DNA of 64,000 nt from an uncultured delta proteobacterium (GTDB lineage: Bacteria > Desulfobacterota > Binatia > UBA9968): positions 160,001-224,000 of the forward strand of contig CAVYTU010000013.1 in the NCBI GenBank assembly GCA_963771465.1, written 5' to 3'. Of this stretch, positions 8,409 through 63,928 are shown one piece after another; the first letter of the stretch is position 1, and each line of letters opens with the position of its first letter. Position numbers and translations under genes: made by a program. Under the pieces are notes generated by a model. The model did no database searches. It saw nothing but the letters and a program-made list of their open reading frames with translations, and was not told the origin of the DNA.

Positions 8409-8426
8409 TGTCTTAGATACGCGACA
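8409..8426. promoter_or_regulatory. 18-bp palindromic putative activator site (UAS)
   Basis: TGTCTTAGATACGCGACA, between two divergent sigma54 motifs. Confidence 0.55.
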
Positions 8427-8563
8427 AATTTTCTCTAGTTGTTGCGACATTGAGACGTTGCGTGGGACGCGTTTTCGTTGTGGAGGCATAAACAGCGAAA
8501 AGTGCAGCACTTACTTGCGACGCTCGTCCCATAATGCCCAGATCGACTTACTCGGGCCACAAG

Positions 8564-8578
8564 TGGCATATGACTTGC
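8564..8578 (+). promoter_or_regulatory. sigma54-type -24/-12 promoter
   Basis: TGGCATATGACTTGC, 35 nt before ATG 8613. Confidence 0.75.
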
Positions 8579-8612
8579 TGTTTAGAAGAGTTGTGAAGCA
8601 AGCGAGCACATC

Positions 8613-8885
8613 ATGGCAACAGAAGAAACAGCCGGACAGCAGATTGGAATGACAGCGATGTTGGCACTCTTGGCGTCCATCGCTGGCGTGATAGCGGTTT
8701 TTGTCGGTCAACCCGGGTGGGGATTGATGTTCGCAATATGCGCCGCGCTGCTCGGTGCCATCGGTTTTTTCATGTCGGCCTCACCGCGGGTGAGTGGCGG
8801 GATGATCAGCATCGTCGCCATCGTGATTGGAGTCTTCGGTATCGGTTTATCGGTGCTTGGCGTGATTGGCAGCGCGATTTTTTAG
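8613..8885 (+). CDS. Small membrane protein (3 TM)
   Basis: 90-aa hydrophobic ORF downstream of a sigma54 motif. Confidence 0.7.
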   Translation: MATEETAGQQIGMTAMLALLASIAGVIAVFVGQPGWGLMFAICAALLGAIGFFMSASPRVSGGMISIVAIVIGVFGIGLSVLGVIGSAIF

Positions 8886-8908
8886 AATATTCGGAAAGGA
8901 GGAGTGTT

Positions 8909-8983
8909 ATGAATTCGATTATTTATATCGTCGGTCTAGTCGTAGTGGTGTTGTTCGTTTTGGGTTTCTTAGGACTGCGCTAA
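8909..8983 (+). CDS. 24-aa single-TM peptide MNSIIYIVGLVVVVLFVLGFLGLR
   Basis: Strong RBS AAGGAGGAG, ATG 8909, TAA 8981-8983. Confidence 0.75.
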   Translation: MNSIIYIVGLVVVVLFVLGFLGLR

Positions 8984-9168
8984 AAATTTTTGAATGTCAG
9001 TCGTAATCCCCTTTAGTGAGCGCAGCGACGGTACTCGTTGTCGGCTGGCAGCGCCTTCGAATATGCTAGCCGTCGACGGGTGCTAGCTAACTACGAACGA
9101 AAGTGAAAGGGATAGTCTTGCCTCGCCGTAAGAACATAGCTGAGAAAGGAAAACTGCTTAGCACACAA

Positions 9169-9200
9169 CTATGCGAGGGAAGACTCCTCCCCTCGCATAG
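9169..9200. terminator. Hairpin between convergent genes
   Basis: CTATGCGAGGG-N10-CCCTCGCATAG perfect 11-bp stem. Confidence 0.5.
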
Positions 9201-9236
9201 CTAGATTGCCGAACGCAACACCCAATACTCGTTAAC

Positions 9237-9932
9237 TTAGTCGCTGCTGGTACCACTCTTGCTCGAACCGCTCTTGCTGGAACCGCCCTTGCTTGAACCG
9301 CTCTCGCTTGGAACGCCCTCGCCGGGAATGCCCTCGCTCTTACTGGAATCACTCTTGGTGGAACTACTCTTGGTGGAACTACTTTTATTGGTATCGTTCG
9401 TGGTGGAACCGCTTTTGGTAGGACTGCTGGATGCGCCGGTTCCAGCCCCGTCGCGGCTAGTAGGGTCGCTTGCTGTTCCGCTGCCTGACGAACCCGCACC
9501 GGAGCTGCTACGGCTGGAACTGCCGGGAGTGGAACTGCTACCGGAGGAGAGCGTTACGCCCAATGCGCTCGCCGTGCTGCTGTCGAGCTGTCCGCTAGTC
9601 TGAATATTCTGCGCGCGTTGGAAAGCCCGCAATGCTTGCTGTGTCCGAGGGCCGATGACTCCATCGACCGGTCCAGGATTATGTCCCTTTCCTTTTAAAG
9701 CTTCCTGAACACTTCGCACATCTTCCTGCGACCATTGACCGTTCATCGAAGACCTTCCCATTGAATCGGTGCTGCTCCGCGCCGAAGAAGCATCCGATGG
9801 CCGTGGCCGTTGTTGGTTTTGTTCAGTCGACGGTCCTGAGGTTCCCGGTGAACTTTGAGACCATCCTACCACTGGGCTCAGTGTCAAAGCGCTAAAAACC
9901 ATCCCCGAAATAATCACGCTATTTTTTCTCAT
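9237..9932 (-). CDS. Secreted peptidoglycan-binding domain protein with Ser/Gly/Lys-rich tail
   Basis: Signal peptide, VRSVQEALKGKGHNPGPVDGVIGPRTQQALRAFQ (PG_binding_1); RBS aagggg before ATG 9932. Confidence 0.85.
   Translation of the reverse strand: MRKNSVIISGMVFSALTLSPVVGWSQSSPGTSGPSTEQNQQRPRPSDASSARSSTDSMGRSSMNGQWSQEDVRSVQEALKGKGHNPGPVDGVIGPRTQQALRAFQRAQNIQTSGQLDSSTASALGVTLSSGSSSTPGSSSRSSSGAGSSGSGTASDPTSRDGAGTGASSSPTKSGSTTNDTNKSSSTKSSSTKSDSSKSEGIPGEGVPSESGSSKGGSSKSGSSKSGTSSD
9256..9420. repeat. Degenerate 15-bp coding tandem repeat (5-aa units such as SSTKS/GSSKS)
   Basis: ctcttgctcgaaccg ctcttgctggaaccg cccttgcttgaaccg ... ctcttggtggaacta x2. Confidence 0.7.
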
Positions 9933-9987
9933 GCAAATTTCCCCTTTCAAATTTTGTTTATTAGGCGTTGCGCTTCTCACCAATACC

Positions 9988-10002
9988 GCAAGGAGCATGC
10001 CA
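9988..10002 (-). promoter_or_regulatory. sigma54-type -24/-12 promoter
   Basis: Minus strand TGGCATGCTCCTTGC upstream of ATG 9932. Confidence 0.75.
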
Positions 10003-10114
10003 CCAACGAGCGCATATGGAGGATGAACGTTTAAAAATTGCTCTGCTTACGCGCGCATGTCTAGCCAGTGAAATCATCGGCGCTTGTACGAGGTCGAATA
10101 TTTTTTCTCTCAAG

Positions 10115-10164
10115 CGTCTTAGTATTGCGAAGCCCCATGCGGGGTTTGTCCCAATTAAAAGACG
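10115..10164. promoter_or_regulatory. Pair of putative UAS palindromes
   Basis: CGTCTTAGTATTGCGAAG (10115) and TGTCCCAATTAAAAGACG (10147), 32 bp apart. Confidence 0.5.
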
Positions 10165-10205
10165 TTGTACCACTCGGACACGGGGTGTGCGGTGGATAGT
10201 AGTTG

Positions 10206-10220
10206 TGGCATTACGCTTGC
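10206..10220 (+). promoter_or_regulatory. sigma54-type -24/-12 promoter
   Basis: TGGCATTACGCTTGC upstream of the GT4 gene. Confidence 0.75.
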
Positions 10221-10294
10221 TCAGAAAATGTACACGCGGGATTTATGCACATCTTCGACGGTCGTTCAGTTGCGAATCAGGAGGATTTGTTTAA

Positions 10295-11371
10295 ATGAGA
10301 ATTGCTCAGGTCTCACCGCTCTACGAGAGTGTGCCGCCTAAATTTTACGGCGGTACCGAACGGGTGGTGTCCTATTTAACTGAAGAATTGATTGAGCAAG
10401 GACACGACGTGACGCTGTTTGCCAGCGGTGATTCGATTACCAAAGCGCGCTTAGTTGCGCCCTGCCCGCGGGCGCTGCGTCTCGAGCCCAACACTGAGGA
10501 GCCGTTAGCGTATCATTATATACAGCTCGATCAGGTTTTCGCTGAAGCTGAATACTTCGATATCATTCATTTCCATATCGCCTATCATCATTTTCCACTA
10601 TTTCGCTGCCAGGCGACGCCTCATCTCACCACGGTTCACGGCCGATTGGATATTGCCGATTTGGTACCGCTCTACAAAAGGTATAGAGAAGTACCTCTTA
10701 TATCGATTTCCAACGACCAGAGGCGCCCTTTGCCCTGGGCGAATTGGCAAAGCACGGTCTACCATGGCCTCCCTTTGGATCTGCATCGTTATAACCACCC
10801 GGCGAAGGGGAATTATCTGGCTTTTTTGGGGCGCATATCGCCCGAGAAGCGTTTGGACCGTGCCATCGAGATCGCCACACGCGCGGGTATGAAGCTGAAA
10901 ATAGCGGCTAAAATCGATGCTGTTGATCGCGAGTATTTTCATCAGATCATTGAACCTTTACTCGCTAACCCACTGGTGGAATGCATCGGTGAGATTGCTG
11001 ATCGGGATAAGCAAGATTTTCTTGGCAATGCCTATGCGCTGCTATTTCCGATCGATTGGCCGGAGCCGTTCGGCTTGGTCATTATCGAGGCATTGGCCTG
11101 CGGCACACCCGTCATCGGATTCCGGCGCGGGTCCGTGCCCGAGTTGATTGAAGACGGTGTCACCGGCTTTATCGTCGATGATGTCGATCAAGCCGTCGCC
11201 GCGCTGCCGAATGTTAAAAATCTGGATCGCAGGCGCTGCCGTCAAGTTTTTGAAGAGCGATTTAGCGCGGGGCGTATGACTCGCGATTATCTGCAGATTT
11301 ATTCGCGCATGATCGATGACCCGCCGCAGGTGCGAGGAGGAATCGAATCCGTCGCGATGGTGGGCGGATGA
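10295..11371 (+). CDS. Glycosyltransferase family 4 protein
   Basis: MRIAQVSPLYESVPPKFYGGTERVV, GRISPEK, EPFGLVIIEALACGTPVI. Confidence 0.92.
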   Translation: MRIAQVSPLYESVPPKFYGGTERVVSYLTEELIEQGHDVTLFASGDSITKARLVAPCPRALRLEPNTEEPLAYHYIQLDQVFAEAEYFDIIHFHIAYHHFPLFRCQATPHLTTVHGRLDIADLVPLYKRYREVPLISISNDQRRPLPWANWQSTVYHGLPLDLHRYNHPAKGNYLAFLGRISPEKRLDRAIEIATRAGMKLKIAAKIDAVDREYFHQIIEPLLANPLVECIGEIADRDKQDFLGNAYALLFPIDWPEPFGLVIIEALACGTPVIGFRRGSVPELIEDGVTGFIVDDVDQAVAALPNVKNLDRRRCRQVFEERFSAGRMTRDYLQIYSRMIDDPPQVRGGIESVAMVGG

Positions 11372-11433
11372 GTTTTTACAACTTGTGGTGCACTGCTAAA
11401 CCGGAAATTTGCACTGAGAAGCTGCGCGCAGCT

Positions 11434-13587
11434 TTAGCGCAGAACGATCGTGGCATCGCCGACACGCCGCTCGACGCCAATGCCACGGAAGGCACGGTCC
11501 ATCACTAGATCGACCGCGCCGCTGCCGACGCGTAAATTTTTGATGTGCACCTCCGTGACGAAATCAGGCAGTGAAGGAGCGGTGAAGCAGACGGTGGATT
11601 GGTTGGCCTGAATCGACAGACCGAGGCAGGTTTGCAAGAGTAAAAAAACCGCTCCCGCGGCCCAAGCTTGCGGCGAGCAAGCAACGGGGTAACGGGTTGG
11701 TCCTTCGCCCTCGCGCCGGGTGAAACCGCAAAATAGCTCTGGCAGGCGTTGGATTTCAAAATATAAACTGGCGTCGAACAAGCCTCCGACAATTCGGTTC
11801 ACACCCGCATCAAGGCCATAACGCGCCAGGCCTGCCGCAATGATCGCATTGTCGTGCGGCCATACTGAACCATTGTGATAGGACATGGGATTGTAGCGCA
11901 CCTCAGCCATATCGAGTGTGCGAATGCCCCAACCTGAAAACGAGCCTTCGCTTAACAGAGTCTTGGCAACGCGCCGAGCATATTCATCGGTGGCAATGCC
12001 GGCAAACAGGCAGTGGCCAGCATTGGAGGCTATGATTTCGCATGGCCGCTTGTCACGGTCCAGGGCGATTGCGTAGGTGGAAAGCTCGTCGCACCAAAAC
12101 GCGCGGTTAAATTGTTGCTTCAAGATTTGCGCCTGGGCGCAGAGGTCGCGCGCTGTATCGCCATGACCTAAGTCTGCAGCCATGGCTGCTGCGGCGAGTT
12201 TGGCCGCGTAGACATAACCCTGAACTTCGCAAAGGGCTAAGGGAAATTCCGGTATCGTTCCGTCACGGTGCGATACCGAATCCCATGAATCCTTCCAACC
12301 CTGCTGCACCAAACCAGCCGGCGAGTGGCGCATGGTTTCGACAAAGCCATCGCCGTCAGCGTCGCCATAGGTATCGATCCATTGGAGCGCCAACTTGATC
12401 TGCGGCCAGATGTTGCGAATCGTTTTCAGATCACCGGTGCGCTCATAATAGGCGCCAGCAAGCATGACAAAAAGCGGTGTTGCGTCGGTGCTTCCGTAGT
12501 AGCGATCAAAGGGAATTTCCTGCAGCGCGGCCATTTCCCCGAGACGGGTCTCGTGCAAAATCTTCCCCGGCTCGGCATCTTTTTCGGCGTTCAAGTGCGT
12601 CGCCTGGTGGGCAGCGAGGTAACCGAGCACGCCGCGTGCAACCCGCGGGTTCAACCACAAAACCTCGAGCGCCGTAATGATGCCGTCCCGGCCAAACGGG
12701 GTGCTGAACCACGGCACTCCGGCGTAGGGATAAATCCCATAGGGCGTCTCGCTAAACATCATGTGCAGGTCTGAAATCGAGCGCTCGAGCCAGCTATTGA
12801 ATTCATCGTTTGAAGTTCGAATCGTGCATTCCTCGGCGCGTATCGATGCCAGTGCGGTTTTCGCCTCAGCGCGGGCGGCTTGGCGCGCGCGCGGTACGGT
12901 CCGTTGGGAATTTGACTGGAACGAATAGGTGAGCGCGTAAAGCTCATCTTTCTTGGCATCTAAGACGGTCCTAAACAGCGCTTCGGAGGTCGTCAACTGC
13001 ACTGGTGCTGGAGCGAAATGGATCTCCGTGCGGCGCAAAACATCGTCGAGGCCGCGATACGAAAACGCCAGGTGGTCGGCCTCGATCACGGGCTCTAAAC
13101 GGGCACCCCTCTTTTCACGTTTGACGCCGCGGACCTCAAAGAGGTCGGCGAAATCGGCGTCGAACTGAAATGAGAAAGCGAATTCCAGCGGCGAAAGCCC
13201 ATAGTTGATGAATCGCAACCATTCGTAACAGGTCGCGCGCCAGATAAATTTCGCGCGAAAGATATGCAGGTCGCCGCGGCGCAATACGATTCGCTCTTTG
13301 GCATAGACGTCCGGATTGGTCAGATCGACGGTGAAAAGCAGATTATCTCGTTTTACCGTCGAGCTAAGTAAAAACGGATGCGCCGTGCCCAAGCGGAAAA
13401 CCAGATGTGAGAGATAACGTGTGCCCTCATGATAGATTCCTTGTTCGCCTAAGCCGGTTTGGCGAATATCCCCATAGAGATCGAAGACCGCGAAACTCTC
13501 GCCATGCTTTAGAATGCGCGATTCTTGGGTCGCGCTCGAAGGCGCCGCGATATAAAATGGGTCAGTCAAACGAATCACTTCAGCCAT
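11434..13587 (-). CDS. Amylo-alpha-1,6-glucosidase (glycogen debranching-like) protein
   Basis: AGVPWFSTPFGRD, EPGKILHE, QGWKDS, YHNGSVWPHD, RLPELFCGF, CSPQAWA; RBS aaggag before ATG 13587. Confidence 0.9.
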   Translation of the reverse strand: MAEVIRLTDPFYIAAPSSATQESRILKHGESFAVFDLYGDIRQTGLGEQGIYHEGTRYLSHLVFRLGTAHPFLLSSTVKRDNLLFTVDLTNPDVYAKERIVLRRGDLHIFRAKFIWRATCYEWLRFINYGLSPLEFAFSFQFDADFADLFEVRGVKREKRGARLEPVIEADHLAFSYRGLDDVLRRTEIHFAPAPVQLTTSEALFRTVLDAKKDELYALTYSFQSNSQRTVPRARQAARAEAKTALASIRAEECTIRTSNDEFNSWLERSISDLHMMFSETPYGIYPYAGVPWFSTPFGRDGIITALEVLWLNPRVARGVLGYLAAHQATHLNAEKDAEPGKILHETRLGEMAALQEIPFDRYYGSTDATPLFVMLAGAYYERTGDLKTIRNIWPQIKLALQWIDTYGDADGDGFVETMRHSPAGLVQQGWKDSWDSVSHRDGTIPEFPLALCEVQGYVYAAKLAAAAMAADLGHGDTARDLCAQAQILKQQFNRAFWCDELSTYAIALDRDKRPCEIIASNAGHCLFAGIATDEYARRVAKTLLSEGSFSGWGIRTLDMAEVRYNPMSYHNGSVWPHDNAIIAAGLARYGLDAGVNRIVGGLFDASLYFEIQRLPELFCGFTRREGEGPTRYPVACSPQAWAAGAVFLLLQTCLGLSIQANQSTVCFTAPSLPDFVTEVHIKNLRVGSGAVDLVMDRAFRGIGVERRVGDATIVLR

Positions 13588-13707
13588 TCCATTGCTCCTT
13601 TTGATGAGTTCGCGTGATTCAAAAATCGTTCCGGCGCAACCGTTGTCGGGGTTCACAGCACTTGAATCACATCATTCGACTGCTTGAGCATCGCTTCTCT
13701 TATAATA

Positions 13708-13722
13708 CGGTCTCAAATTTGC
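13708..13722 (+). promoter_or_regulatory. Possible sigma54-type promoter for the HAD remnant/topoisomerase IB unit
   Basis: CGGTCTCAAATTTGC, weaker -24 half. Confidence 0.45.
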
Positions 13723-13751
13723 TGTGTGAAGTTGAAGAGGAGTGTTTTTAG

Positions 13752-13964
13752 ATGCGTTACTTGGCTCTAGCCTGCGATTATGATGGCACCTTGGCGTCGG
13801 CAGGCAAGGTATCGAACGAAACTTGTCTGCCTGAGCTGCCGGACTTGCTTTCGGCGTTTCCGCGCTGCGCGTTGTTTGACGCTATGGTTGAAAGTGCGGC
13901 GCGGCGATTTTGCCGCGTTGGAGCTTTGGCAGCGCGAAAGTCGCCCAGCTTATCGATTCGATAG
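13752..13964 (+). pseudogene. Truncated HAD-family (Cof-like) hydrolase remnant
   Basis: RBS gaggag; MRYLALACDYDGTLA is HAD motif I, but motif II (TGR) is missing and the ORF ends at 70 aa. Confidence 0.65.
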
Positions 13965-13968
13965 AAAG

Positions 13969-15237
13969 ATGAAAGACGACGACCACGACTCCAACCGGCA
14001 AATTTCGCGTAGCAACGGCACGGACGCCATCGCCGCAGCACAGGCGGCGCGATTGCGTTATGTTGGCGATTGGCATCCCGGGTTGCGCCGCAGGCGAAGC
14101 AGGAAGACTTTCGTTTACGTTGGCGTCAATGGTAAACCCCTGCGCGATCGCGAGCAGGTGCGCCGGATAAAAGCCCTGGCGATTCCACCGGCGTGGAGCG
14201 AAGTGTGGATATGCCCCTGGGCCGACGGTCACCTGCAGGCAACCGGCCGCGATGCGCGCGGCCGTAAACAGTATCGCTACCATTCGCACTGGCGCGAGGT
14301 GCGCGACGAGAACAAATACCAGCGTATGATCGCCTTTGGGCAGGTCTTGCCGCGCATCCGCACGCAGGTAGAGAAAGATCTGGCACTTTCGGGACTGCCG
14401 CGCCCCAAGGTGCTCGCTACAGTGGTCAAGCTCCTTGAGATGACCCATATTCGAGTCGGCAACGAAGAGTATGCGCGCAGTAACCAGTCCTTCGGTTTAG
14501 CAACCTTGCGCAACCGCCACGTTAAGATTACGGGAGGCAAATTGCGCTTTGAATTTCGCGGCAAGAGCCGGGTCGAACACGCTATCGATTTACAAGACCC
14601 GCGCCTGACGCGCATAGTCAAGCGCTGCCAAGATCTTCCCGGTTACGACTTGTTCCAATATATCGATGATGACGGTGTGCGTTGTGCCATCGAAGCAAGC
14701 GACGTGAACGATTATTTGCGCGAAATTGCCGGCGCCGAGTTTAGCACCAAAGATTTTCGCACTTGGGCTGGTACCGTGCTCGCCGCGCGAGCTCTGCGCC
14801 AGTTCAAGATTACGGGATCACAAGCCAAGACCAAACGGGATATCAACAAAGCGATCCACGCCGTAGCGCAATTGTTGGGTAACACCACGGCCGTGTGCCG
14901 CAAATGTTACATCCATCCCGCCGTACTCGATGCCTATACCTCAGGAACCTTAGGCAGTCCTGTGCTCGGCAGGCGTGCGCAGAATGGCGGAAACCGGGGC
15001 TTGGCAGCGGAGGAAAGCGCGCTCTTGGCGCTGTTGCAGCGCATGGCGCGGAGATCTGCCAGGCGAGAAAAAGTTTCACTCAAGCCGAGCCGGCGCGCCG
15101 GCGGAAAAAAATTGCGCGGCGCGCGCGTGTCTTTCACCCACGTAACGGTGACACCCGCAAAAAAGGAAAATGGGAAGAACCAGAGTTTGAGCCGTGATCG
15201 AAGGACGAAGTCGGCGCTTGCTGTCGGTTTAAAATGA
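13969..15237 (+). CDS. Bacterial DNA topoisomerase IB with basic C-terminal tail
   Basis: LAIPPAW, GRDARGRKQYRYH, RVGNEEY, FRGKS, KDFRTW, LGNTTAVCRKCYIHP catalytic motifs; start approximate. Confidence 0.92.
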   Translation: MKDDDHDSNRQISRSNGTDAIAAAQAARLRYVGDWHPGLRRRRSRKTFVYVGVNGKPLRDREQVRRIKALAIPPAWSEVWICPWADGHLQATGRDARGRKQYRYHSHWREVRDENKYQRMIAFGQVLPRIRTQVEKDLALSGLPRPKVLATVVKLLEMTHIRVGNEEYARSNQSFGLATLRNRHVKITGGKLRFEFRGKSRVEHAIDLQDPRLTRIVKRCQDLPGYDLFQYIDDDGVRCAIEASDVNDYLREIAGAEFSTKDFRTWAGTVLAARALRQFKITGSQAKTKRDINKAIHAVAQLLGNTTAVCRKCYIHPAVLDAYTSGTLGSPVLGRRAQNGGNRGLAAEESALLALLQRMARRSARREKVSLKPSRRAGGKKLRGARVSFTHVTVTPAKKENGKNQSLSRDRRTKSALAVGLK

Positions 15238-15393
15238 TTACAACGCGCTTCGCCAAAGACGCTGAAGAGCACGAAAAAAACTGTAGCGTCCAAAGCGCCG
15301 TAGAAACTAGTTAATCAGTGCTATTTTTCCTCTGTGTAGCATCATGCGCGCTATTTAACCGCGGGTGAGAATGGCCGGAACGCGCCAGCTACT

Positions 15394-15441
15394 CGTGCCA
15401 AAAACGAGACGAATTCCAAGCGAAGTCCTGGTTTTCGGACG
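15394..15441. promoter_or_regulatory. Pair of putative UAS palindromes
   Basis: CGTGCCAAAAACGAGACG (15394) and AGTCCTGGTTTTCGGACG (15424), 30 bp apart. Confidence 0.45.
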
Positions 15442-15492
15442 GCGCTCAGCCAAACCAGTGAAAATTTGTATTGAAATAGAGCAGCGAGCCTC

Positions 15493-15507
15493 TGGCACGT
15501 TAGTTGC
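15493..15507 (+). promoter_or_regulatory. sigma54-type -24/-12 promoter
   Basis: TGGCACGTTAGTTGC, perfect TGGCAC-N5-TTGC consensus. Confidence 0.85.
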
Positions 15508-15544
15508 GCTAAGTAGTTTTAGTTTTAAAATTTAAGGAGGCCTT

Positions 15545-15949
15545 GTGAAACGTATTACATTTACAATTATACCGATGTGTTTGTTAACCACACTCATTGT
15601 CGTCGGTTGTTCGAAGGATCGAGCTAGCAATGAAAAAGTATCTCAAACTAGCGCAGCACCGGACAACTCCGCTGTCAATGTCCGAGATCGCAACGATCAA
15701 ACAAAGACCGCAGGAGATCAGGCCGAAAACGAAGCCGATCGAACGATTAGTCAGAACATAAGAAAGGAGCTTAGTGCGGACGATTCACTTTCAACCAACG
15801 GTAAGAACGTTAAAATTATTACCGCGGACGGTAAGGTGACCTTACGTGGTCCGGTGAAGAGTGACGCGGAAAAATCTGCCATCGCCGGCAAAGCGCAGCA
15901 GGTAGCAGGTGTTAAAAACGTCGATAACCAATTAGAAATCGCCAATTAA
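15545..15949 (+). CDS. BON domain (OsmY-like) lipoprotein
   Basis: Lipobox IVVGC; GKVTLRGPV...AGVKNVDNQLEI; RBS aaggagg. Confidence 0.9.
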   Translation: MKRITFTIIPMCLLTTLIVVGCSKDRASNEKVSQTSAAPDNSAVNVRDRNDQTKTAGDQAENEADRTISQNIRKELSADDSLSTNGKNVKIITADGKVTLRGPVKSDAEKSAIAGKAQQVAGVKNVDNQLEIAN

Positions 15950-15972
15950 AAAAACTTATTTTAGGAGGTTTT

Positions 15973-16536
15973 ATGTCCAAATCTGTATTCTGTTTAGTCG
16001 ATAGCGAAGTCCAGGCGGAAGCCATCGTCGACAATCTCAAAGCCGCCAATTTTTCCAACAACGAAATTTCGGTCTTATTTCCGGATAAATCCGGCACCAG
16101 AGACTTTGCTCACGAACAACACACTAAGGCCCCCGAGGGAGCCGCCACAGGCGCAGGAACCGGTGGGGTAGTGGGTGGAGTTTTGGGCTGGCTCGTTGGG
16201 ATCGGTTCGCTAGCGATACCGGGTGTTGGCCCTTTTATCGCTGCGGGACCGATCATGGCGGCGCTCGCCGGCGCAGGCGCTGGTGCGGCGGTCGGCGGAC
16301 TGACTGGAGCCCTGATCGGCATGGGCATTCCGGAGTACGAGGCCAAGCAGTATGAGGGAAAAATAAAGGGTGGCAATATTCTTATTTCGGTCCATTCGGA
16401 GAACAGCGATGAAAGAACGCGCGCGAAGGATATTTTCGAGCGCGCCGGGGCGCACGACATTTCCTCCACGGAAGAAGAGAGTGTTCCCGACGAAAGTAAG
16501 GTCCATCCCAGAGCGGGATATCCGTCGCGCCCATGA
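15973..16536 (+). CDS. General stress protein (YflT/17M-like fold with glycine-zipper membrane segment)
   Basis: PEGAATGAGTGG...AIPGVGPFIAAGP...GMGIPEYEAKQYE; RBS aggagg. Confidence 0.8.
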   Translation: MSKSVFCLVDSEVQAEAIVDNLKAANFSNNEISVLFPDKSGTRDFAHEQHTKAPEGAATGAGTGGVVGGVLGWLVGIGSLAIPGVGPFIAAGPIMAALAGAGAGAAVGGLTGALIGMGIPEYEAKQYEGKIKGGNILISVHSENSDERTRAKDIFERAGAHDISSTEEESVPDESKVHPRAGYPSRP

Positions 16537-16557
16537 AGCGTTTCGGGAGAACCCACC

Positions 16558-16668
16558 ATGAGACTGTTGAAAGACCAACAAGGAAAAGTGGGATGGGTAC
16601 TTCTTTGGGCCTTAGGCGTGCCCATTCCCGTTTTAGTCATTTTGTTCTTGATGCGTGGCTGTACCTGA
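16558..16668 (+). CDS. 36-aa membrane peptide MRLLKDQQGKVGWVLLWALGVPIPVLVILFLMRGCT
   Basis: RBS ggag, last ORF before a terminator, hydrophobic LLWxLGxPIP motif. Confidence 0.7.
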   Translation: MRLLKDQQGKVGWVLLWALGVPIPVLVILFLMRGCT

Positions 16669-16757
16669 TCGATTAATTATCGCCAATTGAAGCTGTCAAC
16701 GTGGGCAGTAGTGCATTCTGGAATTATCACAGCGATCGCCGGTTAGCCGGCTTGCAA

Positions 16758-16806
16758 GACGCGGGAGGCGCGCTACGTCGTGCCTCCCGCGTCGCCTTTT
16801 GTTTTT
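16758..16806 (+). terminator. Rho-independent terminator
   Basis: GACGCGGGAGGCGCG/CGTGCCTCCCGCGTC stem followed by a T-rich tract. Confidence 0.75.
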
Positions 16807-16861
16807 CCAGTACGATTATTGCGTTCTCCTCTCGCCTAATTTTCGTTGATCCAGTCATCGT

Positions 16862-18679
16862 ATGAGCACTTCCCGAGCCGACCCAACGTCGAGCTACGGA
16901 TGGAGCGGCAAGTTGCCCTCCCTATCGGTCCTCCCCGCGTTGGTTCTCGTTGTCGCGTCTCTTTATTGGGCGCAGTTATTTCTCATTCCCATTGCGCTCG
17001 CGGTTTTGCTCACATTTTTATTGACTCCTGTAGTGACGGCGCTGGAAACCCTAGGCTTGCGTCGTGTTCCTTCTGTCCTACTCATTGTCATCATTCTCTT
17101 TTCACTGTTGGGAATTATCGGCTGGATTGTCGCGCTTCAACTTAACAGCGTCGCCAATCAGCTGCCCACGTACAGAAATAATATTCGGCAAAAGATCGCG
17201 GATGTGCGCGGCGCTGGCAAGGGTAGCGCCTGGGAGAAGATGAAAGAGACCGCGAAGGAAGTAAAAAAAGAACTCAGCAAAGATCCCAGTTCGGCGCCCC
17301 AGCCGCGTCCAGTGGTTGTTCAAGGTGAAGAGTCGACGACGTTCTGGCCCATTTCACCGTCCGCGGCTTCGATGTTCGATCGTCTGGCGGGAGCTGGGTT
17401 CGTGATCGTTTTGGTGGTTTTTATGCTCATCCGCCGGGAAAATTTGCGTAACCGGCTGATTCGGCTGCTAGGTTATGGACGCTTGACGATTACTACCAAA
17501 GCGATGGAAGAGGCCGGCCGCGGCATAACTCGCTATCTAGTTATGCAGTCGCTGCTCAATAGTGGGTTTGGCATGGCGGTGGCAGCTGCGCTTCTATTGA
17601 TTGGGCTCCCTTATGCGCTTCTCTGGGGTTTTTTGGCTGCTTTGTTGCGCTTCATTCCTTACGTCGGCTCAATGGTAGCGGCGACTCTGCCGACAGTCTT
17701 AAGTCTCGCGGTGTTCGATGGCTGGTTCTGGCCAATGCTCGTTTTTGGCGTGATTGTCGCTATGGAACTCGTGAACGGCATGATTTTGGAACCTTTACTT
17801 TATGGTGAAAGCGCGGGTGTCTCTGAAGTCGGCCTGCTCGTCGCGATTGCGTTTTGGACCTGGCTTTGGGGCCCGCTCGGACTTTTACTCGCGACTCCCC
17901 TTACAGTTTGTGTTGTTGTGATCAGCAAACACGTGCCGCAGATGGAATTTATCGATGTGCTCATGAGCGACGATCGCATCGTCGATATCGATACCGACAT
18001 TATCTATTATCAACGGTTGTTAGCGATGGATCGGGTCGAAGCGAGGGAAATCATCGAAGACCATTTCAAGTCGCATCCCGCCGAACAGGTTTTCGACGAA
18101 CTCATGGTTCCAGCCCTCAGTTATGCCAAAAGAGATTTTTCACGTGGCCGATTAACCGAAGCCGAAGAACAGTTGGTTTTCCAATCGACACGCGAGATTC
18201 TGGCGGAGGTTGAAAGTTTGCAGCCGAAGGATTCCTCAGATTCGTCCAGCCCGACGATCGACGCTCAGCGCCAGCCTTCGATTTCCGGGAAACTTTGCAT
18301 TATCGGTTGTCCAGCCAAGGACGAGGGTGACGAGTTGGCTCTGGCCATGTTTAGTCGGTTGCTCGATCCGAACCGTTATGAGATCGAAATACTCGCCGAT
18401 GAGTTGCTGATCTCCGAGATCATCGAACGGATTGCTGAAAAAAACCCTGCGATAGTCTGTATAGCGTCAGTACCCCCGGATGGATTGGATCATACTCGAT
18501 CCCTTTGCAAACGGCTGAGACAGCGATTCCCTGACCTGCAAATCTTCGTTGGTCGATGGGGTATCGACGGTCGGGACAATACCGATCAGTTAATGTTGGC
18601 TGGCGCTGACAAGATCGGCAAAACGATAATAGAATCGCAACAGCAAGTCATGCAGGTGAATCAACTGACTGCCAATTGA
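16862..18679 (+). CDS. AI-2E family transporter with C-terminal B12-binding-like domain
   Basis: LIPIALAVLLTFLLTPVV, ILEPLLYGES, FWTWLWGPLGLLLATPLTVC; full-length paralog of 1..1629. Confidence 0.88.
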   Translation: MSTSRADPTSSYGWSGKLPSLSVLPALVLVVASLYWAQLFLIPIALAVLLTFLLTPVVTALETLGLRRVPSVLLIVIILFSLLGIIGWIVALQLNSVANQLPTYRNNIRQKIADVRGAGKGSAWEKMKETAKEVKKELSKDPSSAPQPRPVVVQGEESTTFWPISPSAASMFDRLAGAGFVIVLVVFMLIRRENLRNRLIRLLGYGRLTITTKAMEEAGRGITRYLVMQSLLNSGFGMAVAAALLLIGLPYALLWGFLAALLRFIPYVGSMVAATLPTVLSLAVFDGWFWPMLVFGVIVAMELVNGMILEPLLYGESAGVSEVGLLVAIAFWTWLWGPLGLLLATPLTVCVVVISKHVPQMEFIDVLMSDDRIVDIDTDIIYYQRLLAMDRVEAREIIEDHFKSHPAEQVFDELMVPALSYAKRDFSRGRLTEAEEQLVFQSTREILAEVESLQPKDSSDSSSPTIDAQRQPSISGKLCIIGCPAKDEGDELALAMFSRLLDPNRYEIEILADELLISEIIERIAEKNPAIVCIASVPPDGLDHTRSLCKRLRQRFPDLQIFVGRWGIDGRDNTDQLMLAGADKIGKTIIESQQQVMQVNQLTAN

Positions 18680-18710
18680 GACGACAGCTCATTTTTGGGT
18701 AATTCGTCGG

Positions 18711-18759
18711 TATCTCATTCGTGAGACACTGACGGTTGCTTTGTCTCACCTCTGTAACA
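18711..18759. promoter_or_regulatory. Pair of putative UAS palindromes
   Basis: TATCTCATTCGTGAGACA (18711) and TGTCTCACCTCTGTAACA (18742), 31 bp apart. Confidence 0.6.
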
Positions 18760-18812
18760 TTCAGAATCGTGCTTCATCATCCCCCACGGTAAACCGGCGT
18801 GAATGCGTGCTT

Positions 18813-49932: not shown

Positions 49933-56274
<6,342 letters not shown>

Positions 56275-56349: not shown

Positions 56350-57465
56350 ATGAATGAACCGACCAACATTCTCCTCGTCGACGATCAGGCGCGTAATCTC
56401 GATGCCCTCGAGGCGATCCTGGCTTCGCCGGACTACCGCCTGTTCCGCGCCCAATCGGCCAACGAAGCGCTGCTGGCATTGCTCAACCACGATTTCGCGG
56501 TCATTGTGCTCGATATCCGCATGCCGGATGTCAACGGCTACGAGCTCGCGCAGATGATCAAGCAGCGCAAAAAAAATCAGCATCTGCCGATCATTTTCTT
56601 GACCGCCTATTTGCAGGATGATAGAGAAATCCTCGACGCCTACGGCGCCGGCGCGGTGGACTATTTGAGCAAGCCGATCAACCCTTTGATCCTCAAGTCC
56701 AAGGTCGGAGTTTTTGTCGATCTGTTTCGCAAGACCCGCGAGCTGGCGCGCCTCAACGAAATCATGGAGAGCGAGATCGAAGAGCGGGTGGCGCAGATCA
56801 GGGCGAGCTTGCAAGAAAAAGAAATTTTGCTCAAGGAAGTCCATCACCGGGTAAAAAATAACATGCAGGTCATTTCGAGTCTGCTGAGTCTGCAAGCCGA
56901 GCGCGTTGGCGAAGGCGAGACCCGGCAACAATTTCGCGACGTGCGCGATCGCGTCCAGTCGATGGCGCTGGTGCACGAGAAGCTTTACCAGTCCGAGAAC
57001 TTCGCGCATGTGCAGATTGACGATTATACGCGCAGCTTGATGAACGATCTATTTCAAGCCTACGCCAGCGGACTTCCGAAGGTGCAACTTCATCTCGATC
57101 TTGAGACGGCCGAGCTACCCGTGAATCTCGCTATCTCTTTTGGACTGATCCTGAACGAGTTGGCAACCAATGCCTTCAAGCATGCGTTTCGCGGCCGTGA
57201 CAGCGGCGAAATCCAGATCAAACTTGAAACTAACCGAAATGAAGAAATCCGGTTGCGATTCGCGGATAATGGCCGGGGCTTTGCCGCGCCACTGCGTTGG
57301 GAGAGCGTCGATTCGTTGGGCCTGCGTTTGGTCCGCATGCTAACCCAGCAGCTCGGCGGGCACGTCGAAATGCGCAGCGAACGGGGCACGACTTTCGAGC
57401 TGAGCTTCAAAATCAGTCCTGCGGCAATGTCGCCTGGCAGCAATGAGGAGTCGTTAAGGTCATGA
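56350..57465 (+). CDS. REC plus HisKA_2-type histidine kinase
   Basis: ILLVDDQARNL receiver; LLKEVHHRVKNNMQVISSLL; NELATNAFKHAF. Confidence 0.9.
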   Translation: MNEPTNILLVDDQARNLDALEAILASPDYRLFRAQSANEALLALLNHDFAVIVLDIRMPDVNGYELAQMIKQRKKNQHLPIIFLTAYLQDDREILDAYGAGAVDYLSKPINPLILKSKVGVFVDLFRKTRELARLNEIMESEIEERVAQIRASLQEKEILLKEVHHRVKNNMQVISSLLSLQAERVGEGETRQQFRDVRDRVQSMALVHEKLYQSENFAHVQIDDYTRSLMNDLFQAYASGLPKVQLHLDLETAELPVNLAISFGLILNELATNAFKHAFRGRDSGEIQIKLETNRNEEIRLRFADNGRGFAAPLRWESVDSLGLRLVRMLTQQLGGHVEMRSERGTTFELSFKISPAAMSPGSNEESLRS

Positions 57466-60495: not shown

Positions 60496-61911
60496 ATGGC
60501 AAATCGATACGATGCCGTCGTAATCGGTTCCGGCCCCAACGGTTTAGCGGCGGCGATTACCTTGGCCCAGGCGGGCCGATCGGTAATCGTCTATGAAGCA
60601 GAAGCGATTCCCGGCGGCGGGGCGCGCTCGTTTGCGCTGACCTTGCCGGGTTACGTTCACGATGTCTGCTCGGCAGTCTATCCACTGGCCATCGGTTCGC
60701 CGTTTTTTCGCACCTTACCTCTCGATCAGCACGGGCTTGATTGGATCCATCCGCCGTCGCCGCTGGCGCATCCACTCGACGATGGCACAGCGGTGATCGT
60801 CGAGCGCTCGGTCGACGCCACTGCGGCCAGCCTCAATGACGACGCTAATTCCTATCGCCGCTTGATGAATTATTTCTGCGCCCGGTGGGACGGATTGGAC
60901 ATCGACCTGTTGGGGCCACCGCGAATGCCACGCCACCCGTTGGTGTTGGCGCGCTTCGGCTTTCTTGGCATTCGCCCGGCAGCGAACTTTGCCCGCAGCT
61001 ATTTCAAAGGTGCTCGAGCACGCGCGTTATTTGCCGGATTGGCGGCCCATTCCATGTTGCCGCTCGAAGCGTTGGGCTCGGCGGCATTCGGACTGGTCTT
61101 GGGCATCACCGCTCACAGCGTCGGCTGGCCGGTGGCACGCGGCGGCGCGCAAAGGTTGGCCGATGCGCTGGTTTCCTACGCGCGCTCGCTGGGCGTGGAG
61201 ATTGTCACCGAGCGGCGTGTTCGCGCGCTTCGCCAACTGCCAAAAGCGCGCGCCGTGTTATGCGATGTGACGCCGCGCCAGCTTTTAGCGCTGGCGGAAA
61301 ATGAATTGCCGGATTCGTTCCAGCGGCGCTTGCAAAGCTATCGCTACGGCATGGGCGTTTACAAAGTCGATTGGGCGCTCTCGGCGCCGGTGCCCTGGCG
61401 AGCAGCCGAGTGCGCCCGCGCCGCCACGGTTCACCTCGGCGGTTCGCTGGAAGAAATTGCGCTGTCGGAACGCGCTGCGGCGCGCGGCGAACAGAATGAC
61501 CGGCCCTTCGTCCTGATCGCGCAGCCCTCACTTTTCGATGAATCGCGCGCGCCCCAAGGCAAACACACGCTCTGGGGTTACTGTCATGTGCCCCATGGTT
61601 CGGACCGACCGATGCTGGATAACATTGAAAGTCAGATCGAGCGGTTTGCGCCGGGGTTTCGCGAGATCGTGCTGGCGCGGCATACAATGGGGCCGGCGCT
61701 GCTCGAACAGCGCAATGCCAATCTAGTGGGCGGGGACATCAACGGCGGTACTGCCGATCTGCGGCAATTATTTTTGCGGCCGTCCCGGCGCATGTACGGT
61801 ACTCCGGTAAAAGGTCTTTATCTATGCTCGGCGTCGACGCCGCCCGGCGGCGGCGTGCACGGCATGTGCGGCTATTTTGCCGCGCGCCGGGCCCTCAGCG
61901 AGATGGAATAA
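60496..61911 (+). CDS. Phytoene desaturase-like FAD-dependent oxidoreductase
   Basis: IGSGPNGLAAA, HDVCSAV, CSASTPPGGGVHGMCG. Confidence 0.88.
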   Translation: MANRYDAVVIGSGPNGLAAAITLAQAGRSVIVYEAEAIPGGGARSFALTLPGYVHDVCSAVYPLAIGSPFFRTLPLDQHGLDWIHPPSPLAHPLDDGTAVIVERSVDATAASLNDDANSYRRLMNYFCARWDGLDIDLLGPPRMPRHPLVLARFGFLGIRPAANFARSYFKGARARALFAGLAAHSMLPLEALGSAAFGLVLGITAHSVGWPVARGGAQRLADALVSYARSLGVEIVTERRVRALRQLPKARAVLCDVTPRQLLALAENELPDSFQRRLQSYRYGMGVYKVDWALSAPVPWRAAECARAATVHLGGSLEEIALSERAAARGEQNDRPFVLIAQPSLFDESRAPQGKHTLWGYCHVPHGSDRPMLDNIESQIERFAPGFREIVLARHTMGPALLEQRNANLVGGDINGGTADLRQLFLRPSRRMYGTPVKGLYLCSASTPPGGGVHGMCGYFAARRALSEME

Positions 61912-62143
61912 AGCGTCGGACCCGTCGCAACGATAACAATTAACCTTCCTTTCGTCGCCGCTTATCTTTTTAATCCCGCGGCTTTAGACTGGACGCGAGC
62001 CATCGTCTAGAGGAACCGGTAGCCAAAAAGTGCTTAAGGCCCGTGTGTCCGCGTTGGCGGCTCGACCTGCATCCATTGGGTAAATCTTTACGTCTGGATT
62101 AAGTTTTGCAGAGCCAGAGGTGTTGTGGGACTAACATTCGCTC

Positions 62144-62407
62144 ATGTTTCGAAAGAAATTTTCCGTTTCAGCGTGCGAGGTAGGTGCAATGGTTAGACTG
62201 AAGAAATCATCCGATCAAAGAGCCAAACAAACTCAGACGGCCGACCCTGTGCTCATCGAGCTCAGCGCTGAAGCCAAAACCAATCTGAAAAAGCTCCAGT
62301 TACTCTCTTTGGATGGCGAGGGGCGGCAACCGGGCGCCTCACAGATTATCGAAAAACTGATCAACGCCGCGGTGGTTAGCGGCCCGGATGCGCCTTATCC
62401 GGGATGA
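62144..62407 (+). CDS. Hypothetical protein (start may be 62189)
   Basis: 87-aa ORF ending 3 nt before the next gene; RBS-like gaggtagg before ATG 62189. Confidence 0.45.
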   Translation: MFRKKFSVSACEVGAMVRLKKSSDQRAKQTQTADPVLIELSAEAKTNLKKLQLLSLDGEGRQPGASQIIEKLINAAVVSGPDAPYPG

Positions 62408-62410
62408 TCT

Positions 62411-63679
62411 GTGCATCGGGTCGTGGTGATCGGTGGCGGGTTTGGCGGACTTTGCGCGGTCCAGTCGATGCGCCATTTACCCGTCGAGGTCACGCTCGTA
62501 GACCGGCGCAATTTCCATCTTTTTCAGCCACTGCTTTACCAAGTTGCTACCGGTTGGTTATCGCCGGCCAACATCGCTTCGACCCTTAGAGCCGTATTAC
62601 GTCACCAAAAGAACGCCAAAGTTCTTCTTACAGAAGTAACCGACATTGACCCGGCGCGTCGCAAAGTAGTTTTCGCCGGCGGAACACTTGACTATGACAC
62701 GCTGATCGTCGGCACCGGCTCGAGTCACCATTATTTCGGACATGACCATTGGCAGAAACTTGCACCGGGCTTAAAGACCATCGAAGACGCCATCGAAATG
62801 CGCCGCCGGATCTTTTCCGCCTTCGAGTCCGCTGAGCGAGAGACCGATCCGGCCAAGATTCGCGACTGGTTGACCTTCGTGATTGTCGGCGGCGGTCCTA
62901 CCGGCGTGGAACTCGCCGGTGCGTTAGCGGATATTGCCAATCAAACTTTGACTCACGACTTTCGCAGCATCGATCCTAGCGCGACGCGAATACTTTTGCT
63001 TGAGGCGTCTGATCGTATCCTATCGACTTATCCTGAGGATCTGGCGAGCAACGCGCAAGGCTTTCTAAAGAACCTTGGTGTGTCAGTGCAAACTCGCACT
63101 GCGGTCACCGAACTCCGGCCGGGTGAGGTTGCGGTCAAGCGTTGTGAGACGCCTGAGGTGATTCCCTGTCAGACGGTGCTCTGGGCGGCGGGGGTGCGCG
63201 CATCGCAACTTGGCGAAGTGCTGGCGCGCTGCGGCGTTGCGACTTTGGATCGCGGCCGCAGGGTGATCGTTGAGGACGATTTTTCTCTTGCCAATCATCC
63301 GGAGATTTTTGTCATCGGCGATCTGGCTTGCTATACGCCGTCCGGCGGCAATCCGTTGCCGGGTATCGCGCCGGTCGCGCAACAAGCCGGTCGCTACGTC
63401 GCCCAAATTATCGGCAACCGTCTCAATGGCAAAACTACGCGGCCATTCAAATATCGGGATCGCGGCAGTATGGCAATTGTCGGTCGCGCCATTGCCGTCG
63501 CGGACTTGGGAGGCATGCATCTCGCCGGTTTCGCCGCTTGGCTCGCGTGGTTGTTTATTCATCTGATGCAGATCGTTGAGTTCGAAAACCGTGTGCTGGT
63601 ACTGGTTCAATGGGGCTGGTTCTATTTTCGCCGCAGCCGTGCTGCGCGGTTAATTACGGGTGACAAGTTTGAGTCGTGA
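62411..63679 (+). CDS. ndh: Type II NADH dehydrogenase family FAD oxidoreductase
   Basis: IGGGFGG, FQPLLYQVATG, VGGGPTGVELAG, WAAGV, IGD, FKYRDRGSMA. Confidence 0.88.
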   Translation: MHRVVVIGGGFGGLCAVQSMRHLPVEVTLVDRRNFHLFQPLLYQVATGWLSPANIASTLRAVLRHQKNAKVLLTEVTDIDPARRKVVFAGGTLDYDTLIVGTGSSHHYFGHDHWQKLAPGLKTIEDAIEMRRRIFSAFESAERETDPAKIRDWLTFVIVGGGPTGVELAGALADIANQTLTHDFRSIDPSATRILLLEASDRILSTYPEDLASNAQGFLKNLGVSVQTRTAVTELRPGEVAVKRCETPEVIPCQTVLWAAGVRASQLGEVLARCGVATLDRGRRVIVEDDFSLANHPEIFVIGDLACYTPSGGNPLPGIAPVAQQAGRYVAQIIGNRLNGKTTRPFKYRDRGSMAIVGRAIAVADLGGMHLAGFAAWLAWLFIHLMQIVEFENRVLVLVQWGWFYFRRSRAARLITGDKFES

Positions 63680-63791
63680 AACTGCGCGGGCGAAAATTAA
63701 AAACCCAATTGGCTCGCTCCGTAGAATTACCGTGAGGCTGCGTGATTCGTCGCGCGCGAGATCCTGACAAAATGCGCTAACGCAATGACAA

Positions 63792-63928
63792 TGTCTCATT
63801 TTTGAAACACCGTAAAGCTTTTCGTATCATTCTTGGGATTACGCGCCCCAGCGAAATTTTACAAAGCGGTTGAATTTCGTTCGTTGCCGTTGGTTCACGC
63901 GACGACTCGCCACTGGCATGTCGGTTGC
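63792..63928 (+). promoter_or_regulatory. UAS pair (63792, 63823) plus sigma54-type promoter (63914-63928) for a gene beyond the window
   Basis: TGTCTCATTTTTGAAACA, CGTATCATTCTTGGGATT (31 bp apart), TGGCATGTCGGTTGC. Confidence 0.7.

Follow-up and report, generated by a model that had tools for sequence, protein, structure and literature searches.

A recurrent palindrome at sigma-54-type promoters and a candidate NtrC-family activator for a predicted stress regulon in an uncultured Binatia lineage

What is the role of an 18-bp palindrome that recurs, often in pairs some three helical turns apart, through an island of stress-type and signaling genes in an uncultured delta proteobacterium of the Binatia? 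The island was analyzed in a stretch of 64,000 nucleotides, here called the window (G000:C13:160001-224000, from contig CAVYTU010000013.1 of assembly GCA_963771465.1), which makes up 0.9% of the DNA of a 6.9-Mb genome in 19 contigs with ~56% G+C. Coordinates without a prefix are window positions, and those prefixed C13, C14, or C17 are positions on contigs of the genome. The original prediction held that the palindrome, TGTCYYA-N4-TRRGACA, is the site of a single activator, encoded outside the window, that controls the island through sigma-54 promoters. We find that the recurrent palindrome is a genuine motif and not a product of chance, that its copies are very probably sigma-54 enhancer sites, and that a gene lying upstream of the window probably encodes the protein that binds them.

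All eleven 18-mers and all six partner pairs on which the prediction was built were recovered at the same positions, the pairs being 32, 30, 31, 32, 33, and 31 bp apart from start to start. A further pair is found at 8409/8440 (31 bp), and the sites at 49752/49794 are separated by 42 bp. The pattern was counted with one, two, or three mismatches allowed, as stated in each case. At up to three mismatches, there are 17 matches in the window, compared with 8.8 ± 2.8 in dinucleotide shuffles, and none of 100 shuffles reaches 17. At up to two mismatches, 89 matches are found genome-wide, or 0.82 per 64 kb on average; the window contributes 12 of these, and the region from 128 to 256 kb of C13 holds 16. 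The consensus is about nGTCYYA-wwww-TRRGACn, with TGTCCCA as the half-site, and only the arms are conserved, the centers and flanks being variable. Half-site centers lie 10 bp apart within each palindrome, which matches the expectation for a dimeric helix-turn-helix (HTH) protein.

The palindromes are closely coupled to sigma-54-type promoters. A symmetrized matrix was trained on 20 sites chosen by coordinate (18 from the window and two upstream of the candidate activator gene described below), and the genome outside C13:153400-224100, which excludes all training DNA, served as an independent test zone. Sigma-54-like sites were those agreeing with the form TGGCAC-N5-TTGCW at 9 or more of its 11 positions, with the GG and GC fixed; the strict pattern was TGGYAY-N5-TTGC. 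In the test zone, 90 matrix matches score at least 12.5; a crude open reading frame (ORF) call leaves 40 of these in intergenic DNA. A sigma-54-like site lies 25–130 bp downstream in the correct orientation for 19 of these 40, while ~1.0 would be expected from random intergenic positions (binomial P about 4e-20), and the opposite orientation is seen in one case. Matches scoring at least 10 form 12 pairs 10–80 bp apart in the same zone, nine of which are spaced 30–34 bp. The strict promoter pattern occurs within 400 bp downstream of 12 of the 89 genome-wide palindrome matches. Working in the other direction, with no motif supplied, we found GTCCCA/TGGGAC to be the most enriched 6-mer between −140 and −15 of 427 intergenic sigma-54-like sites (39 regions versus 13.5 expected, p 5e-9 over 2080 words), with the overlapping words TCCCAA, CGTCCC, GGACAA, and GGGACA next in rank. 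The half-site is thus recovered without a prior motif, and the predicted co-occurrence with −24/−12 sites holds outside the training DNA.

Genome-wide, 54 sigma-54-like sites have a match of at least 10.5 located 25–135 bp upstream, and 35 of these units have either a match of at least 12.5 or a pair; 16 of the 35 fall in C13:150-240 kb, nine of them in the window. The predicted promoters have a −24 GG and a −12 GC 10 bp apart and lie upstream of genes, in a genome with one rpoN gene (C14:367875-368351). The upstream sites have the geometry of enhancers, or upstream activator sequences (UAS), in that they are dyads spaced 30–34 bp, placed 36–116 bp upstream of the promoter, and disposed on one helical face. 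In 16 paired-site promoter units, the center of the proximal site is 36.5–82.5 bp upstream of the −24 GG, and these distances cluster one helical turn apart (R 0.62–0.65 at 10.5–11 bp, Rayleigh p about 0.001–0.002, n=16); the p-value is uncorrected for the periods tried, and some divergent promoters share one pair. The tandem activator-site interpretation is therefore supported by excess, position, orientation, ~31-bp spacing, phasing, and conservation in relatives, and we regard the prediction that the palindromes are sigma-54 enhancer sites as very probably correct.

Which protein reads them? Pfam scans covered the larger ORFs of the window and its flanks, some small ORFs having no family match. 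No DNA-binding regulator domain appears among the scanned window ORFs, in agreement with the proposal that the activator is encoded elsewhere, and a gene of the anticipated architecture, with receiver, AAA+ (GAFTGA), and HTH domains, is present in the flanking DNA ~5 kb upstream of the window start. Its 451-aa product is here named EBP1 (G000:C13:153626-154981). The receiver domain (Response_reg, 1.8e-27, residues 5–115) has D54 in a VLLDLKMPG context; the AAA+ domain (Sigma54_activat, 6.2e-71, residues 144–310) has the Walker A sequence GESGVGKE, the GAFTGA motif, and an AAA lid; and the C terminus carries a Fis-type HTH (HTH_8, 8.3e-13, residues 407–446). By its predicted domains, EBP1 is an NtrC-family response-regulator enhancer-binding protein. 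It falls below every NCBIfam equivalog cut-off, including those for AtoC (456 versus 714), NtrC (402 versus 558.6), ZraR (389 versus 760), PEP_resp_reg (379 versus 502.6), and NtrX (370 versus 600), and its best solved relatives are NtrC-family proteins of the Aquifex type, e.g., 4l4u and 1ny5. No kinase gene adjoins it in its own genome or in four relatives, which makes EBP1 an orphan response regulator. No match in the genome exceeds the NCBIfam cut-off for RpoS (best 294 versus 378.7 bits).

The region in front of the EBP1 gene contains, in order, CGTCCCAAATTCGGGACG, TGTCCCGTAAATGAGACA 32 bp on, the sigma-54-like promoter TGGTACGGGGATTGCC, a ribosome-binding site, and the ATG. The two palindromes score 17.3 and 20.6 and are centered 81.5 and 49.5 bp upstream of the −24 GG of TGGTACGGGGATTGCC. 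The sigma-54 activator domain is matched at 35 places in the genome, and of 26 loci examined, EBP1 alone has sites of at least 12.5 within 3.5 kb. We consider it probable, on this co-localization and on the co-conservation described below, that EBP1 binds the palindromes as an activator of sigma-54 promoters.

A third matrix match was also seen at the EBP1 promoter: AGTCTCATTTTTGGTACG (score 17.4; L111:5566-5583, equivalent to C13:153566-153583) overlaps the −24 element. The same overlap (CGTCTCATTTTTGGCACG and variants) occurs in six EBP1-clade relatives (L031–L036), and in the sister-clade locus L043 a weak third match ends just upstream of the −24 element with no overlap. It could be a negative-feedback site, or an artifact of the likeness of TGGCAC to the half-site TGGGAC.

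The autoregulatory layout recurs in other genomes, as the prediction of conservation in relatives would have it. A scan of species-representative genomes with EBP1 gave 21 loci at 62%–93% identity, followed by a drop to 45% or less; the close loci are titled Candidatus Binatia or "uncultured delta proteobacterium" metagenome-assembled genomes, with a few other labels. Twenty of the close loci (at least 62% identity) have upstream DNA. Eleven of these show two sites 31 bp apart and then a −24/−12 site. Four more have one strong site, and its partner is a weaker match in two of them (L035, 10.2; L038, 9.5), overlaps the −24 element in L036 (15.9), and is weak and lies downstream in L043 (11.0). 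The remaining five have either none (L040, L047, L050, and L051) or a single distant site (L049). The 13 activator loci with identities of 45% or below have no such tandem pair. In a quick maximum-likelihood tree with SH-aLRT support, on which our clade statements are based, sites are present in 7/7 rows of the EBP1 clade and in 8/8 rows with upstream DNA of a sister clade. A third clade, that of a paralogue in the same genome (C13:418909-420252, 60% identical to EBP1), has no sites in four of five rows and a single site in the fifth; besides the genome's own paralogue, its rows are three genes that lack sites and one that has a single site. In the clades with sites the sequence of the recognition helix is SRSSLYRK, and the paralogue clade has SLSS or SLST there.

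Conservation extends beyond the activator's own promoter. In 208 kb of orthologous loci there are 18 pairs spaced 30–33 bp and 47 matches in all, 29 of which have an associated sigma-54-like site, while 642 kb around unrelated activators yields seven matches and no pairs. The syntenic 140 kb of one relative (G004, activator 91% identical) holds 21 matches of at least 12.5 and 15 site-promoter units. Genome-wide counts of the strict palindrome with up to one mismatch, compared with a reversed-pattern control, were made in 41 genomes, of which one (G005) was excluded from the sums. The pattern outnumbers its control in five genomes whose EBP1 is at least 90% identical (53 versus 18), and not in 19 other genomes of the genus (66 versus 92) or in 16 genomes of two other families (29 versus 87). 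Because the excess is confined to genomes with EBP1 at this level of identity, the large regulon tracks the EBP1 clade. A composite site-plus-promoter pattern with a single 30-bp gap range was also tried for these counts; it gave only 4–8 matches in the genome itself, and the plain palindrome count was used instead.

These results lead us to propose the following mechanism. An EBP1 dimer would bind each palindrome through its C-terminal Fis-type HTH, and two dimers 31–32 bp apart, i.e., three helical turns, would lie on the same face of the DNA. Phosphorylation of receiver Asp54 by a kinase would lead the dimers to assemble an AAA+ ring, which would contact sigma-54 holoenzyme at a −24/−12 promoter 36–83 bp downstream of the proximal site by way of a short loop and use ATP to open the promoter. 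EBP1 would in this way activate its own gene, in a positive feedback, along with about 35 promoter units. Palindromes three helical turns apart and phased with the promoter are what one would expect if an activator ring assembles cooperatively. EBP1 binding, positive autoregulation, activation at Asp54 by a kinase, and the sigma-54 dependence of the promoters are all inferred.

The alternative that survives best keeps the palindrome as a sigma-54 UAS and assigns it to another enhancer-binding protein, such as the paralogue at C13:418909-420252, with EBP1 a mere member of the regulon, as in a cascade. The genome has 35 matches to the sigma-54 activator domain, the HTH helices of EBP1 and its paralogue are similar, and the regulon extends to other contigs; co-localization is no proof of binding, and any member of the regulon would also carry sites. 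We nevertheless think this unlikely. At the 25 other activator loci checked, no site within 3.5 kb reaches 12.5; the paralogue is preceded by a kinase gene of its own and has only one upstream match, scoring 11.4. The sites follow EBP1 and its sister clade through the tree and are absent from most of the paralogue clade, the two proteins differ at a recognition-helix residue (R versus L, given as the first residue of the helix), and the genome-wide excess tracks the presence of EBP1 at 90% identity or more.

A second alternative, that the palindrome is bound by a factor other than an enhancer-binding protein (for instance a repressor, anti-activator, or architectural protein), with the true activator sites located elsewhere or the activator acting from solution, strikes us as quite improbable. 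It would account for the strong sites at 41306, 49752, and 49794, at promoters without a −24/−12 element, and for the third match over the −24 element of the EBP1 promoter, and it draws on the finding that an IHF consensus (WATCAR-N4-TTR) lies between proximal site and promoter in none of the 35 units. The geometry, however, is that of activator sites, with placement 36–116 bp upstream, 19 cases in the expected orientation to one in the other, three-turn pairing, and phasing. No other conserved element was found upstream, and Pfam detects no other DNA-binding regulator among the scanned ORFs of the window and flanks, some small ORFs there being without a family match. The last alternative, that the motif has no regulatory role and arose by chance, from base composition, or as the remnant of a dispersed repeat, might appeal to the degeneracy of individual sites and to the background-level counts of the strict pattern in genomes without EBP1, but chance is rejected by shuffled sequence, by the reversed pattern as control, by the positional test in independent DNA, and by conservation across genomes, and conserved arms with variable centers and flanks are unlike the copies of a mobile repeat, so that we give it almost no credence.

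Several observations weigh against EBP1 as the activator, or against the palindrome as a uniform enhancer. Some sites are poor, and several seed sites of the matrix score only 9–12. A search for exact 3-mer and 4-mer inverted dyads (gaps of 0–16 bp) upstream of the 427 intergenic sigma-54-like sites did not place GTC-N10-GAC in its top ranks, because the sites are too degenerate. The original prediction put the sites mostly 30–120 bp upstream of sigma-54 motifs; the strong sites at 41306, 49752, and 49794 have no recognizable −24/−12 element nearby, and may reflect repressive use, sigma-70-linked use, or decoys. Among candidate target families, sites with a promoter stand upstream of only 3/6 CsbD, 2/13 BON, and 1/2 YtxH genes. 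Conservation is likewise uneven. Locus L040 has the SRSS helix and no upstream sites. In 18 orthologue upstream regions of two targets, the sigma-54-like site is kept in 12 and a site of at least 9.5 in only eight, and all that remains of the strong site at 37306 in its orthologues in three relatives is the left half-site, TGTCCCA, with a degenerate second site 31 bp on. A comparable regulon was expected in genomes with the sister-clade activator, but across these genomes the strict pattern is not in excess, and the 140 kb around the sister-clade activator gene of one of them (G018, activator 65% identical) contains only eight matches, with six sigma-54-like sites that have a match 25–135 bp upstream. 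It seems that the sister clade has mainly retained the autoregulatory sites, along with a few targets, such as the one at L038:3640-4800 (−), where an HSP20 gene and a fusion of a Ribosomal_S30AE hibernation factor with a cold-shock domain lie behind a palindrome (17.3) and a −24/−12 site.

What, then, would EBP1 control? The claim that one activator governs the island would apply to nine strong units in the window; only part of the operons of the island carry sites, and the regulon reaches other contigs. By Pfam, the stress-type genes of the window encode a BON protein (15545), three YflT-domain proteins, a long KatE-type catalase (24034), two BrkB/YihY proteins, CBS-domain proteins, DUF1003, a hemerythrin, a glycogen-debranching-type hydrolase, a type IB topoisomerase, an SDR-DUF2171 fusion, and a Zn-dependent alcohol dehydrogenase. 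Its signaling genes include a KaiC/KaiB pair, a CheB-CheR fusion, several hybrid histidine kinases, and a 2113-aa HAMP-array kinase. First genes of units outside the training set encode three CsbD proteins, a YtxH with DUF948, BON, a Dps-like ferritin, DUF3309, a DUF892-like protein, PG_binding beside a second catalase, a rubrerythrin-like protein, a single-domain receiver, a GFO/IDH/MocA oxidoreductase, and CBM48. Of the YflT-domain matches, 2/4 have sites and a promoter upstream, if the second gene of the BON operon is counted. The predicted targets are typical general-stress or dormancy proteins, and this gene content fits a stress regulon. A CsbD-BON-YtxH-like cluster at C17:797985-801246 has no palindromes, and only its CsbD gene has a sigma-54-like site, 439 bp upstream; the genome therefore has stress genes outside the regulon. 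Contigs identical or nearly identical to parts of 8301-28300 (15546-16692, for example, without differences) occur in four metatranscriptome runs from three studies. They are assembled contigs selected by this stretch, which show neither transcript starts nor strand nor level and may include DNA carry-over, and no conclusion on sigma-54 dependence is drawn from them.

The individual sites in the window show how far the layout is repeated. The first pair, 31 bp apart (8409-8426 and 8440-8457, matrix scores 16.5 and 11.1), is flanked by a divergent sigma-54-like site at 8362-8377 (−) and by one at 8564-8579 (+) that precedes a 90-aa ORF (8613-8885). The second (10115-10132 and 10147-10164, 32 bp apart, scores 13.2 and 16.6) has its centers 82.5 and 50.5 bp upstream of the −24 GG of the sigma-54-like promoter TGGCATTACGCTTGCT (10206-10221, +), which stands in front of a GT4 glycosyltransferase gene (10295-11371), and a divergent sigma-54-like site at 9987-10002 (−) faces a PG_binding gene. 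The pair at 15394-15411 and 15424-15441, 30 bp apart, is followed by the sigma-54-like promoter TGGCACGTTAGTTGCG (15493-15508, +), the BON gene (15545-15949), and a YflT-like gene (15973-16536); a −24/−12 site is kept upstream of BON orthologues in relatives. Directly upstream of this promoter region lies a gene for a eukaryotic-type DNA topoisomerase IB (Topoisom_I and Top1B_N_bact, 13780-15237). Next come sites at 18711-18728 and 18742-18759, 31 bp apart, with the sigma-54-like promoter TGGTACGATGGTTGCG (18813-18828, +) and a YflT-domain gene (18927-19262), and a weaker pair at 20488-20505 and 20520-20537 (32 bp, scores 11.4 and 11.5). The sigma-54-like promoter of the latter, TGGCATTCCGCTTGCG (20412-20427, −), faces a BrkB/YihY-family gene called at 19445-20428; the true gene start must be downstream of this promoter.

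Farther along, a single site at 28007-28024 (score 14.3) accompanies the sigma-54-like promoter TGGTCCCGCATTTGCT (27952-27967, −) of the hemerythrin gene (27457-27906, −). A weak site at 30899-30916 and a stronger one at 30932-30949 (33 bp apart, scores 8.8 and 15.8) are found with a weak −24/−12-like element, GGGTATGCCCTTTGCG (31009-31024, +), which agrees with the consensus at seven of 11 positions and keeps GG-N10-GC; it is 69.5 and 102.5 bp from the site centers, a spacing class found at other units, and precedes a 67-aa ORF (31091-31294) and a CBS gene (31298-31762). The strong site at 37306-37323 (score 18.5), with a degenerate second site 31 bp downstream (37337-37354), is followed by a perfect consensus sigma-54 promoter, TGGCACGAGCGTTGCT (37415-37430, +), identical in two relatives and preceding a 119-aa ORF (37501-37860), the SDR-DUF2171 gene (37897-39243), and the Zn-dependent alcohol dehydrogenase gene (39295-40869). 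At the end of the window, sites at 63792-63809 and 63823-63840 (31 bp apart, scores 20.7 and 12.9) precede the sigma-54-like promoter TGGCATGTCGGTTGCT (63914-63929, +), which serves the first gene past the window end (C13:224109-224471) and then an AI-2E-family transporter gene.

The sites without a −24/−12 element stand at signaling genes. A near-perfect orphan palindrome, TGTCCCGTAAATAGGACA (41306-41323, score 19.6), lies directly upstream of the KaiC gene and is the strongest orphan. In this segment (41288-45565), the KaiC (653 aa) and KaiB genes lead into genes for a PAS histidine kinase and a receiver. The palindromes at 49752-49811, with their 42-bp spacing, are upstream of a hybrid kinase gene (49933-56274) and are followed by a TTGACA hexamer instead of a −24/−12 element. 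The 2113-aa product of this gene has about ten HAMP/HAMP_2 repeats, GAF, HisKA, and HATPase_c domains, and three receiver domains. Two other hybrid kinases, at 32663-35108 (−) and 43672-45565 (+), each consist of two overlapping ORFs broken inside HisKA, with PAS and the first 29–39 HisKA positions in one ORF and HATPase_c and REC in the other; the break may come from a frameshift or an assembly error, or the genes may truly be split. Also among the signaling genes of the island is a receiver fused to a HisKA_2/HWE-type kinase (56350-57465), and kinases of this type are associated with the alphaproteobacterial general stress response. Upstream of sigma-54-like sites in the genome, two dyads other than the palindrome are enriched, AAGA-N5-TCTT (nine regions versus 0.93 expected) and GTAA-N5-TTAC (six regions versus 0.36 expected), and these may be the motifs of other activators.

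A broader reading, which we advance tentatively and regard as possible rather than probable, is that the general stress or dormancy response of this Binatia-like soil lineage is wired directly through sigma-54. One autoregulated orphan NtrC-type regulator, reading a GTCCCA-type enhancer at ~35 promoters, would stand in for the alternative sigma-70-family factor (sigma-S, sigma-B, or EcfG) of all well-studied general stress responses; the hybrid kinases and KaiC/KaiB of the island would feed signals into it; and the regulon would be a recent expansion, in one clade, of an ancestral autoregulatory circuit with chaperone and hibernation-factor genes. Enhancer-binding proteins usually control few operons. 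If this reading is right, control of a general stress response is within reach of an ATP-gated, zero-leak sigma-54 switch, with some 35 units that include hallmark genes of the sigma-B, sigma-S, and EcfG regulons. The analysis in any case offers a concrete regulatory model for an uncultured, widespread soil lineage, with a defined motif, a candidate activator, and a list of target promoters, and the motif can be used to annotate many unnamed small regulon proteins as stress-associated.

How does this system compare with those already known? At the enteric glnAp2 promoter, NtrC (NRI) dimers bind two palindromes about three helical turns apart, ~100–140 bp upstream of the sigma-54 promoter, and phosphorylation of Asp54 drives oligomerization. 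EBP1 resembles NtrC as a REC-AAA+-Fis-HTH response regulator with paired palindromic sites. It differs in its half-site (GTCCCA versus GCACCA for NtrC), in having no adjacent kinase gene, in its predicted targets, which are stress proteins and not nitrogen assimilation genes, and in its score of 402 against the 558.6 NCBIfam cut-off. The UAS of NifA, TGT-N10-ACA upstream of −24/−12 promoters, is likewise bound by a Fis-type HTH; here the outer TGT and ACA are 12 bp apart rather than 10, EBP1 has a REC domain where NifA has GAF, and the regulons are unrelated. The best-known general stress regulators, sigma-B of Bacillus, sigma-S of enterics, and EcfG of Alphaproteobacteria, are sigma-70-family factors held in check by partner-switching or proteolysis. 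The predicted regulon overlaps strongly with theirs in gene content (CsbD, YtxH, YflT, Dps, KatE-type catalase, BON/OsmY-like, SDR, and DUF892/YciF-like proteins), but it is predicted to use promoters of the −24/−12 type and an ATP-dependent activator.

The kind of mechanism is thus classical, a textbook one, and as far as the literature searched extends, the motif, the activator subfamily, and the ~35-promoter regulon are undescribed. That literature, including term look-ups in PMC12316311 and PMC4641369, gave no account of the motif, the activator, or a sigma-54-run general stress regulon in Binatia; a similar motif may be present in the logos or supplementary tables of PMC4641369 or the supplements of PMC11841059, and most subscription journals fall outside its scope. 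A close parallel is NmpR of Myxococcus xanthus, an NtrC-like protein that acts at two palindromic sites (S1 and S2) upstream of sigma-54 promoters and activates its own operon (PMC11841059). It heads a regulon for a soil stress, low oxygen, that is fed by a multi-kinase relay and was defined by the site pair, the sigma-54 site, and their orientation (PMC11841059). Its motif, GCGCA-N5-TGCGC, with 14–15 bp between sites, was linked to seven promoters and 23 oxygen-utilization genes by electrophoretic mobility shift assays and reporters (PMC11841059). Paired palindromes before sigma-54 promoters, a self-activated gene (predicted for EBP1), and the logic by which the regulon is defined are shared by the two systems; the GTCYYA-N4-TRRGAC motif, the ~35 predicted units, and the orphan candidate activator set the present one apart. 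A sigma-54 activator also stands atop a global adaptive response in the Rrp2-RpoN-RpoS pathway of Borrelia burgdorferi, where sigma-54 is reported to drive one gene, rpoS, which in turn reads the regulon (PMC4014564). In the Binatia genome the sigma-54-type promoters are placed directly on the effector genes.

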